From Candidatus Limnocylindrales bacterium (lineage in GTDB: Bacteria; Chloroflexota; Limnocylindria; Limnocylindrales; CSP1-4): 24,000 nucleotides of DNA. The stretch covers positions 3,828-27,827 of the forward strand of contig JBBRYO010000008.1 in NCBI GenBank assembly GCA_038237595.1, written 5' to 3'. The translations under genes were made by a program, and so were the position numbers. How positions within the stretch are numbered: the first letter of the stretch is position 1; every line of letters begins with the position of its first letter. A model generated the notes under the pieces. It did no database searches, was not told the origin of the DNA, and saw only the letters and a program-made list of their open reading frames with translations. Below are positions 19,088 to 23,484 of the stretch, piece after piece.

Positions 19088-19116
19088 TTGCACAGGCAGG
19101 GTCGTTCGGGTAAGGT
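19088..19116 (+). promoter_or_regulatory. Candidate promoter of an orphan small transcription unit
   Basis: TTGCAC (19088-19093), exactly 17-nt spacer, TAAGGT (19111-19116). Confidence 0.45.
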
Positions 19117-19121
19117 GCTCG

Positions 19122-19256
19122 AGAACGAAAGGAGGTGATGTGCAGTGATCGACAGTAAGCAGCGCTGCACCACCTCGGAGGATCGGCGCTAAGTCGACCC
19201 GACCGGGTGGTGAAAGCAGCCACGAAAACGCCGGCCCGTCTTGGGCCGGCGTTCGT
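19122..19256 (+). ncRNA. Candidate structured small RNA or leader (family not recognised), with optional micro-ORFs
   Basis: Bounded by the promoter above and the intrinsic-terminator hairpin below. It contains GAAAGGAGGTGAT (19127-19139). A 12-bp interrupted helix pairs 19132-19137/19171-19176 and 19140-19145/19165-19170. The alternative 7-8-bp helix pairs 19168-19175 with 19205-19212. Confidence 0.4.
19227..19253 (+). terminator. Intrinsic-terminator-like hairpin
   Basis: AACGCCGGCCC-gtctt-GGGCCGGCGTT, an 11-bp stem (9 consecutive G/C-containing pairs) with a 5-nt loop. The trailing sequence TTCGTGCGT is only a weak U-tract. Confidence 0.6.
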
Positions 19257-19355
19257 GCGTCCGGACGAATCCGTCCGCCACCACACCGATTGACCGCCGC
19301 GCCACCCTGCCGCGGCTTCAGTCGCTTCCAGCCCGACCATCCAGGAGCCTCGAAG

Positions 19356-19826
19356 ATGAGCGAGACCGTCGCCATCAACCGCAAAGCACGCTACGAGTTC
19401 AGCATCGAGGACACCCTCGAGGCTGGCATTGTGCTGACCGGCACGGAGATCAAGAGCATCCGCGACGGAAAGGCCAACCTCCAGGACGCATACGCCCGGA
19501 TCGAGCGCGGAGAGGCTTGGCTGGTGGGCGCCCACATCGCGCCGTGGGCCGGCGGCAACCGCAACAACCACGAGCCGCGCCGCGACCGGAAGCTGTTGCT
19601 CCATCGCGTCCAGATCGACCAGCTGCTCGGCAAGACAAAGGCGAAGGGTCTCACGCTCATCCCGTTGCGGCTCTACATCACCGATCGCGGCCGGGCGAAG
19701 CTGGAGCTGGCGCTGGCCCGCGGCAAGCAGCTCCATGACAAGCGCCGCGACATCGCCGATCGAGATGCGCGCCGGGACATGCAACGACAGCTGGCTGACG
19801 TGACACGCGGTCGGAACGACGGGTGA
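19356..19826 (+). CDS. smpB: SsrA-binding protein SmpB
   Basis: NRKARYEFSIEDTLEAGIVLTGTEIKSIRDGKANLQDAYA...NHEPRRDRKLLLHR...LIPLRLY. AGGAG sits 8 nt upstream of ATG 19356. Confidence 0.95.
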   Translation: MSETVAINRKARYEFSIEDTLEAGIVLTGTEIKSIRDGKANLQDAYARIERGEAWLVGAHIAPWAGGNRNNHEPRRDRKLLLHRVQIDQLLGKTKAKGLTLIPLRLYITDRGRAKLELALARGKQLHDKRRDIADRDARRDMQRQLADVTRGRNDG

Positions 19827-23112: not shown

Positions 23113-23484
23113 GGGGATGCGTGGTCTCGACAGGGCCAGATTCCCGAGGAACGCGAGTCGAGGTTGCTATCTGGCCTCGTTAAAAAGGTAGCAAAACGAA
23201 GTAACTGGCAATCGCCAGCCGACTCTCGCTCTCGCTGCTTAGGCAGTAGAGTGAGCGTGGAAGCAGCCTCCTCCCCGTGGGCTGTGGAAGCGTCATTCAG
23301 CGGGGATGCGCCTTCGAGTAGCGTCGCGTAGTCGGAGGCAAAGCCCGAAAGGGGACGTGACTGGAACGGTCAGGATGCTGCCGATGGCAGCCTGATCGCT
23401 CGACGATAAAGCATCGGACACACTCGTAGTGGTCCTCGGCTGAAGGTTCTGGACGGGGAGTTCGACTCTCCCCCATCTCCACCA
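23113..23484 (+). ncRNA. ssrA: Transfer-messenger RNA (tmRNA)
   Basis: 5' GGGGAUG pairs with 3' CAUCUCC-A-CCA, including the G3:U alanine identity pair. T-arm GGGGAGTTCGACTCTCCCC. The internal tag frame ends ...GGC AAT CGC CAG CCG ACT CTC GCT CTC GCT GCT TAG (GNRQPTLALAA*, 23207-23242). Confidence 0.95.

Follow-up and report, generated by a model that had tools for sequence, protein, structure and literature searches.

A conserved micro-ORF leader of smpB in Limnocylindria-like Chloroflexota and its possible role in ribosome-dependent attenuation

SmpB and tmRNA form the main bacterial ribosome-rescue system. In the 24,000-nucleotide (nt) stretch of a Candidatus Limnocylindrales bacterium analyzed here (the window), the smpB gene is separated from the upstream ctp gene by a spacer of 323 bp, which extends from the ctp stop (19032) to the smpB ATG (19356). 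A preliminary description of the DNA had given this length correctly and had placed within the spacer, at 19088-19256, an orphan RNA unit running from a promoter to a terminator, with a long match to the complement of the 16S rRNA 3′ tail, two competing helices and three tiny open reading frames (ORFs). Is this unit a free-standing RNA, or does it belong to the gene that follows? Each of the listed features was found at its coordinates, and the three micro-ORFs read as given. The designation as an orphan was not borne out: the smpB transcript begins with this unit as its 5′ leader, and the unit recurs class-wide. Judged by its sequence, the element is a new class-wide RNA family without an Rfam match. 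Most likely it represents a new form of ribosome-dependent attenuation that acts on smpB, a gene of trans-translation.

Occurrence of the element was assessed in two ways. A scan with the SmpB protein, restricted to one genome per species, yielded 80 loci, of which the 73 closest were from Chloroflexota metagenome-assembled genomes (MAGs), many of them labeled Candidatus Limnocylindrales. The element was present 180-280 nt before smpB, as AAAGGAGGTGATGTGCAGTG or as the variant AAAGGAGGTGGTGTG(C/T)AATG, in every Limnocylindria-like locus of this set that had enough upstream sequence. Metagenome contigs were scanned by DNA pattern alone, with no use of smpB, and provided 120 further loci. Altogether the family comprises about 190 loci from Limnocylindria-like Chloroflexota. 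Among the 173 loci with sufficient downstream DNA, 170 carried a co-oriented smpB 150-400 nt downstream. The upstream neighbor was nearly always ctp; in two loci (L105 and L188) where other genes replace ctp, the element remained before smpB. It was single-copy in each contig examined, and its cis position was fixed. In locus L171 (324-1400), a hydrolase-like ORF of roughly 190 aa lies between leader and smpB, and the leader is still the 5′-most component.

No match to the family covariance model was detected near smpB in outgroup loci of Caldilineae, Gemmatimonadota, Longimicrobiaceae and Acidimicrobiia. The preliminary description recognized no Rfam family in the element, which agrees with our covariance-model search of Rfam release 15. 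At the gathering score only the tmRNA passed in the window, and the element had no match; when E values up to 10 were allowed, the best hit on the element was STnc450 (22.6 bits, gathering score 37), which covered the terminator-like hairpin only. The covariance model also matched the reverse strand of that hairpin (window 19227-19253, minus strand, and many other loci) with 23-30 bits; such matches reflect the near-palindromic stem and are not second copies. In addition, a typical Limnocylindria-type leader with smpB (L062, DASPHN010000114.1) is filed under a 'Candidatus Saccharimonadales' MAG, a label that is probably a binning error.

The association with smpB is physical as well as positional. 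The promoter-like TTGCAC (19088-93) and TAAGGT (19111-16), 17 nt apart, are present as first described. In 180 of 185 loci, the 50 nt ahead of the element contained a TTGnnn-N16-18-TAnnnT motif, with the family consensus cTTGCgC-N17-TAcGGT and a predicted start at the G of GAACGAAAGGAGG, which in the window would place transcription initiation near G19123. A generic consensus scan called neither promoter nor terminator at the element, the -10 hexamer being TAAGGT. The distance from the terminator-like hairpin to the smpB start ranged from 18 to 241 nt (median 65, 156 loci) and was only 18-24 nt in seven loci. A separate smpB promoter within this spacer was considered and rejected, as the same motif was found in 0 of the 156 spacers. 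Since the spacers offer neither room nor promoter signal, smpB is transcribed through the element, and on this reading of the sequences it must be co-transcribed with the leader from the element's promoter.

Of the three micro-ORFs, the conserved one is the 15-codon GTG ORF, which the preliminary description named last. A frame of 14-17 codons was kept in register with GTG-19145 in 169 of 170 distinct sequences, while the other two frames were random; accordingly, the GTG-CAG-TGA ORF (19140) and the six-codon ATG ORF (19138) were rejected. The conserved start (155 GTG, 15 ATG) lies 9 nt after GGAGG, the stop is TAG (121), TAA (41) or TGA (8), and length changes occur in multiples of three. The sole broken frame (L053, 2799-2940) results from a 1-nt insertion in a MAG sequence (CGTCAGCTGC for CGTAGCTGC), which may be an assembly error. 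Programmed frameshifting or read-through from the micro-ORF to smpB was rejected because the intervening spacer varies (18-241 nt) without a conserved frame.

The encoded peptide is weakly conserved (M-[I/S/T]-[D/E]-..-C-T-[T/A]-S-x-[E/G]-...). Its C-T-T-S codons are invariant even at synonymous sites, and the same nucleotides form a strand resembling the anti-Shine-Dalgarno (anti-SD) sequence of 16S rRNA, which indicates a constraint at the RNA level. The C-terminal residues track the covarying stems of a hairpin described below. We take a frame that is kept, a peptide that is weakly conserved and an RNA strand that is invariant to mean that translating a frame of fixed length matters more than what it encodes. 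The S-C-T-T motif (R-C-T-T-S in the window, 19163-19177; S-C-T-T-S in most relatives) resembles the start of a thiopeptide core, a likeness that we take to be coincidental because there are no leader peptide and no biosynthetic genes nearby.

These data also bear on a different view, in which promoter, strong Shine-Dalgarno sequence, 15-16-aa peptide and terminator-like hairpin form a self-contained unit, a small gene or dual-function RNA whose peptide or RNA product has a function of its own, and smpB is expressed by constitutive leak through that hairpin, with no regulation by alternative helices. The ORF is indeed conserved together with its start and stop codons, and codon 3 (Asp/Glu) behaves like a coding triplet: its entropies (0.76, 0.49 and 1.42) show variation mostly at the third position, an excess that other codons lack. 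However, beyond the C-T-[TA]-S core, whose codons are invariant at synonymous sites, the peptide is poorly conserved; it is a hydrophilic product of 15 aa, and we know of no peptide family that it would fit. Moreover, GGAG within the micro-ORF is retained even where its reading-frame meaning differs (L171, L103). We regard a small gene as an unlikely explanation.

This internal GGAG is placed with precision. In 157 of 174 sequences, GGAG or GAGG and the micro-ORF stop are exactly 9 nt apart, a spacing that would let a terminating ribosome keep contact between Shine-Dalgarno (SD) and anti-SD. The stop codon itself lies within the apical loop of a downstream hairpin in 165 of 174 sequences. Because it is conserved, a non-stop design of the arfA type was rejected as it stands, although RNase III cleavage in that hairpin could, in a model, yield a non-stop RNA.

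The SD that precedes the micro-ORF is unusually long. The 13-mer GAAAGGAGGTGAT (19127-39), reported in the preliminary description, is complementary to the canonical 16S tail as taken from other Chloroflexota classes, for which the anti-SD CCUCCUUU(C) has been reported (PMC10783764). The complementarity presumes a tail ...GAUCACCUCCUUUC in Limnocylindria; the fetched loci contained no 16S gene. In the 24 kb window the 13-mer is unique at up to two mismatches, with 0.21 chance matches expected. It is invariant across the 93 sequences of a model-based alignment, except for A/G at 19138, and its first five nt are unpaired in every predicted state. An origin as the remains of a minus-strand 16S 3′ end was considered and rejected, since the match stops at 13 nt and the flanks, judged by reading, are unlike helix 45 of the 16S consensus.

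The extended SD, with its GAAAGGAGG core, is 229 nt ahead of the smpB ATG, and about 5 nt separate it from the predicted 5′ end. This location would suit a 5′ stabilizer of the STAB-SD type, in which a 30S subunit on the SD, or a ribosome on the mini-ORF, shields smpB mRNA from 5′-end-dependent decay while the hairpins stabilize or insulate it. Such a device needs no ORF, yet start, frame, length and the stop-in-loop geometry are all conserved here; nor does a plain stabilizer need a strand that sequesters the SD or states of nearly equal energy. Stabilization as the explanation of the unit appears improbable, but it is compatible with attenuation as an added role.

The conserved strands can be arranged as five segments: the extended SD (segment 1), the anti-SD-like strand within the ORF (segment 2), a G-rich strand (segment 3) and the two arms of the terminator-like hairpin T (segments 4 and 5). 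Segment 2 has two possible partners: with segment 1 it forms helix A, with segment 3 hairpin B. Both pairings had been noted in the preliminary description and both were recovered. The helix GAGGTG/GTGCAG (19132-45) with CTGCAC/CACCTC (19165-76) has a predicted energy of -21.1 kcal/mol (z = -3.3), and when the whole unit was folded (-66.4 kcal/mol, z = -3.5), the minimum-free-energy structure contained the alternative pairing, CACCACC (19168-74) with GGGTGGTG (19205-12). The competition between these helices is real and nearly isoenergetic: in the full-length RNA, forcing the SD into helix A or leaving it single-stranded gave nearly equal energies, the difference being -2.0 +/- 2.6 kcal/mol over 145 sequences. 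In the exchange of A for B, 6 bp swap partner, CACCUC turning from GAGGUG to GGGUGG or back. An SD-sequestering riboswitch or RNA thermometer would hide the SD of the regulated gene until a ligand or heat releases it, but the SD sequestered here by the internal anti-SD strand is that of the micro-ORF and not that of smpB. Coordinates of all features are listed in Table 1.

Table 1. Positions of the leader, its parts and the associated genes in the window.
Feature	Position	Strand	Details
Promoter-like site	19088..19116	+	-35 TTGCAC, 17-nt spacer, -10 TAAGGT
Segment 1, extended Shine-Dalgarno GAAAGGAGGUGAU	19127..19139	+	13 nt complementary to canonical 16S 3′ tail
Upstream micro-ORF	19145..19192	+	GTG start, 15 codons MIDSKQRCTTSEDRR, TAA stop
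Segment 2, anti-SD-like strand CUGCACCACCUC	19165..19176	+	codons 8-11 (Cys-Thr-Thr-Ser); nearly invariant nucleotides
Hairpin B	19164..19217	+	base CACCACC:GGGUGGUG (family CACCRCC:GGGUGG), two inner stems, apical loop with stop codon
Internal SD-like GGAGG in micro-ORF	19177..19181	+	9 nt from GGAG (19177-80) to stop codon
Segment 3 CCGGGUGGUG	19203..19212	+	pairs in hairpin B with segment 2, in the candidate antiterminator with the T 5′ arm
Hairpin T	19221..19257	+	core CGCCGGCCC / GGGCCGGCG (19229-37 / 19243-51); lower stem CACGA/UCGUG; tail UUCGUGCGU
Variable T-smpB spacer	19258..19355	+	includes smpB SD AGGAG (19344-48)
smpB	19356..19826	+	Pfam SmpB, E = 5e-59
tmRNA gene (ssrA)	23113-23484	+	Rfam 123.6 bits; ARAGORN tag peptide GNRQPTLALAA

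Hairpins B and T are supported by covariation, counted on the alignment of 93 sequences mentioned above. Taken together, they had 90.5% of cells paired, compared with 84.4% in shuffles and 33-47% in slid controls, and 19 of their 35 pairs showed compensatory changes; none of 500 shuffles reached the observed value in any measure. Each of the 67 first-set sequences was predicted to form hairpin B, with energies of -27 to -42 kcal/mol, and 10 of the 17 pairs in the main stems of B (helices 3 and 4) had compensatory changes. Hairpin T, a GC-rich stem of 10-15 bp, had 98% of cells paired and compensatory changes in 7 of 13 pairs, and such changes in T were already present in an initial RNAalifold run based on MAFFT. 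They are illustrated by the T stem of L171 (GAGAGCCGGCCC/GGGUCGGCUCUC); that of L103 is GAAAGCGGGCCC/GGGCCCGCUUUC. Helix A had 99% of cells paired, with G-U wobbles as its sole variation. Thus, of the two competing helices for which covariation had been suggested as a check, hairpin B shows compensatory changes and helix A shows none.

Conservation of the T region was 0.74, compared with 0.44 for the region after smpB. This is above what a plain terminator needs, and a chain of double pairings anchored on the 16S-complementary SD would explain it. A very stable hairpin directly after the ORF also fits the small-gene view, which does not account for an invariant T, for A and B of nearly equal energy, or for a constant placement ahead of smpB in about 170 loci.

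Several further observations concern the folds. GAACG is present at the predicted 5′ end (19123-19127), most relatives repeat GAACG at the 5′ base of T (CGAACGCCGG), and CGUUC in the T tail (19249-19254) is a complement of either copy; L016 and L086 are among the members whose best fold closes the whole RNA by a 5′/3′ helix. No aptamer-like conserved junction was seen in the element, and inspection of T by eye for a tRNA-like mimic that could bind SmpB revealed no fold resembling a T arm.

A pairing that the preliminary description did not mention is possible between GGGUGGUG of segment 3 and the 5′ arm of T. We folded nascent RNAs of 174 sequences up to the T loop, which is the stage of the termination decision, with 30-nt masks in place of the ribosome. 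Whenever segment 2 was unavailable, segment 3 (CGGGUGGUG) took the T 5′ arm (CGCCGGCCCG) as its partner. The pairing probability of the T 5′ arm was 0.75 without a ribosome and 0.73-0.76 with the mask anywhere in the ORF or at its stop; it fell to 0.38 when SD and start codon were masked, because hairpin B forms. Folding of the growing chain of the window passed from A (56-86 nt) to B (92-98), then to A plus the antiterminator (104-124) and finally to T (128 nt or longer). The antiterminator register had 89% of cells paired, compared with 29-59% when slid.

Based on these data, we see an about even chance that the unit, as modeled, is a ribosome-dependent attenuator leader of smpB, built around a translated upstream ORF of 15-16 codons. 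Its core would be a chain of mutually exclusive helices that links the 13-nt SD, the anti-SD strand in the ORF, GGGUGGUG, the T 5′ arm and the T 3′ arm through the pairings 1:2 (helix A), 2:3 (hairpin B), 3:4 (antiterminator) and 4:5 (T). If a 30S subunit or initiation complex occupied the SD and start codon during transcription, segment 2 would be free to take segment 3; with B formed, T would form and most transcripts would stop ahead of smpB. The five SD bases that are never paired could serve as a toehold. If no ribosome were loaded, helix A would form and occupy segment 2, and a ribosome inside the ORF or waiting at its stop would cover the same segment. With segment 2 unavailable, segment 3 would block the T 5′ arm and the polymerase would read into smpB. 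SmpB output would thus rise when free ribosomes are scarce or when ribosomes linger on the leader. The strongly conserved leader of 135 nt probably tunes smpB to the state of the ribosomes; termination at T, the antiterminator and the on/off sign of the states are what we infer from the folding models.

A more specific and more tentative proposal is that the leader acts as a sensor of translational capacity, with the ribosome itself as ligand. The SD with its 5-nt toehold would be contested by the 16S tail and by the anti-SD mimic; occupancy by 30S would favor the terminator, and absence of free 30S, or a held ribosome, would favor read-through. Retention of a ribosome at the stop would be aided by the GGAG at its fixed distance of 9 nt upstream. 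We consider this possible, though rather doubtful in its full form.

A number of points weigh against attenuation. The preliminary description spoke of a strong hairpin terminator; the hairpin stands (19228-19252, extended 19221-19257), but the terminator scan did not call it, and a U run is missing, the tail being UUCGUGCGU, a weak U tract at best. In L171, the T tail has almost no U, fewer than in the window. A weak U tract would also suit the non-terminating hairpin of an mRNA stabilizer. The alignment on which covariation of B and T was counted had been fitted to the B/T structure. Compensatory changes are absent from helix A, whose support is conserved complementarity alone; because its variation consists of G-U wobbles only, covariation speaks neither for nor against it. 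The same kind of support, again with no compensatory changes, applies to the antiterminator. Moreover, the duplex of segment 3 with the T 5′ arm had an energy of -9.5 kcal/mol, compared with -9.2 kcal/mol for mononucleotide-shuffled segment 3. A specifically selected antiterminator duplex was therefore rejected, and the antiterminator is kept only as a hypothesis at the level of composition and conserved complementarity: the data demonstrate conserved complementarity of a G-rich and a C-rich strand, but no selection for the helix itself. The folding is thermodynamic and uses assumed ribosome footprints and timing. By inspection, the leader peptide contains no run of a single amino acid, RLR, polyproline or other known arrest motif. 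Finally, we infer the canonical 16S tail of the clade from other Chloroflexota classes (PMC10783764).

One locus also departs from the common arrangement. In L196 (5808-6870), an intact element follows ctp, and smpB is inverted about 380 nt downstream; the inverted gene has no second leader before it and follows an unidentified ORF of its own orientation. This may represent either a recent inversion, a misassembly or a unit able to stand alone. An intact unit without a co-oriented smpB is consistent with an independent small gene and with a trans-acting regulatory RNA, in which the terminated 135-nt RNA would act on ribosomes or other mRNAs as a sponge or mimic through SD-like or anti-SD-like single strands. 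The element does carry both a 13-nt SD and a CACCUC anti-SD mimic. Attenuators are also known to release short stable RNAs, and rli80 of Listeria was first annotated as a small RNA (PMC6310831). Against a role in trans, no target was identified, the element is single-copy per contig with a fixed cis position, and conservation of the ORF frame would be unexplained. We therefore consider this role highly improbable. The preliminary description had offered two readings: that of a switchable leader with a micro-ORF is favored by the comparative data, and that of a mimic of an SD/anti-SD pair acting in trans is neither supported nor excluded by them.

Pfam analysis of the flanking genes identified the S41 C-terminal processing peptidase (ctp) and SmpB, with FtsX upstream and an FGGY kinase downstream. 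The gene order is ftsX - ctp (S41) - leader - smpB - glpK - glpD - ssrA; the tmRNA gene follows smpB at a distance of 3.3 kb, beyond glpK and a glpD-like gene.

If a class-wide upstream-ORF attenuator controls smpB, at least one large uncultured lineage of soil and freshwater adjusts trans-translation to ribosome status, in parallel with hflXr in Listeria. No published cis-regulatory leader or upstream ORF for smpB was found in the literature searched; if the leader does sense translational capacity, it would be the first described cis-regulatory RNA for the trans-translation system and would close a homeostatic loop in which SmpB is induced while ribosomes are tied up. Use of its own SD as a switch strand would make the leader a compact natural device with the ribosome as ligand, which could be tested with reporters and reused in synthetic biology. 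In addition, annotation pipelines can take up the new family of about 190 members through its covariance model.

Comparison with known systems helps place the leader. Jaurin et al. reportedly proposed in 1981 that in Escherichia coli ampC a ribosome on a leader ribosome-binding site (RBS) with a minimal ORF sets read-through of a terminator according to ribosome abundance. The sign proposed here is the opposite, since ribosome binding was thought to prevent termination in ampC; the sequences are unrelated, and ampC lacks a conserved 15-codon ORF. Attenuators of the Yanofsky type (trp, his, thr, pheST) likewise possess a short leader ORF, overlapping hairpins 1:2, 2:3 and 3:4, and a terminator-like hairpin. 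The smpB leader differs in having no run of regulatory codons that corresponds to a biosynthetic product, in using its SD as a competing strand, in having five segments rather than four, and in preceding the gene of a translation quality-control factor.

The STAB-SD sequence of Bacillus thuringiensis cry3A is said to have been given by Agaisse and Lereclus in 1996 as GAAAGGAGG. In the STAB-SD concept, a 30S subunit on an extra SD in the 5′ UTR lengthens mRNA half-life (PMC12970973, citing Agaisse and Lereclus 1996). The likeness lies in a GAAAGGAGG motif perfectly complementary to the 16S 3′ end, in its location far upstream of the main start and in proposed 30S binding that does not serve translation of the main gene. 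In contrast to STAB-SD, the SD of the smpB leader has a correctly spaced conserved start and ORF, can be sequestered by an anti-SD strand and is followed by a terminator-like hairpin.

Translational attenuation of ermC and ermB also depends on occupancy of a leader peptide by the ribosome, which rearranges downstream hairpins (PMC6310831). There, the RBS of the resistance gene is freed, whereas the smpB RBS is located 18-241 nt after T, in a spacer that varies and is not conserved, outside the conserved pairings. For arfA, expression of a rescue factor is wired to the state of ribosome rescue (PMC10107115); this involves a non-stop mRNA and a product tagged by tmRNA, while the smpB leader has a conserved stop and is proposed to control transcription read-through.

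The closest experimentally established case is rli80 of Listeria monocytogenes, in which a 14-aa ORF mediates ribosome-dependent attenuation of hflXr, a gene for a ribosome-splitting factor (PMC6310831). There, a short leader is made constitutively, the ORF overlaps an anti-antiterminator that is followed by an antiterminator and a terminator, and a ribosome on the ORF leads to read-through (PMC6310831). Unlike rli80, the smpB leader has no RLR arrest motif, its U tract is weak, it is unrelated to rli80 by sequence or Rfam family, and it is known from sequence alone. Its SD pairs with the anti-antiterminator, which adds a layer and makes ON, not OFF, the predicted state of an unloaded leader; the gene under control belongs to trans-translation (smpB) and is not an HflX homolog. 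The two share their layout, in which a short ORF over segment 2 is followed by segment 3, T and the gene, and in both the leader precedes a gene that acts on stalled ribosomes.

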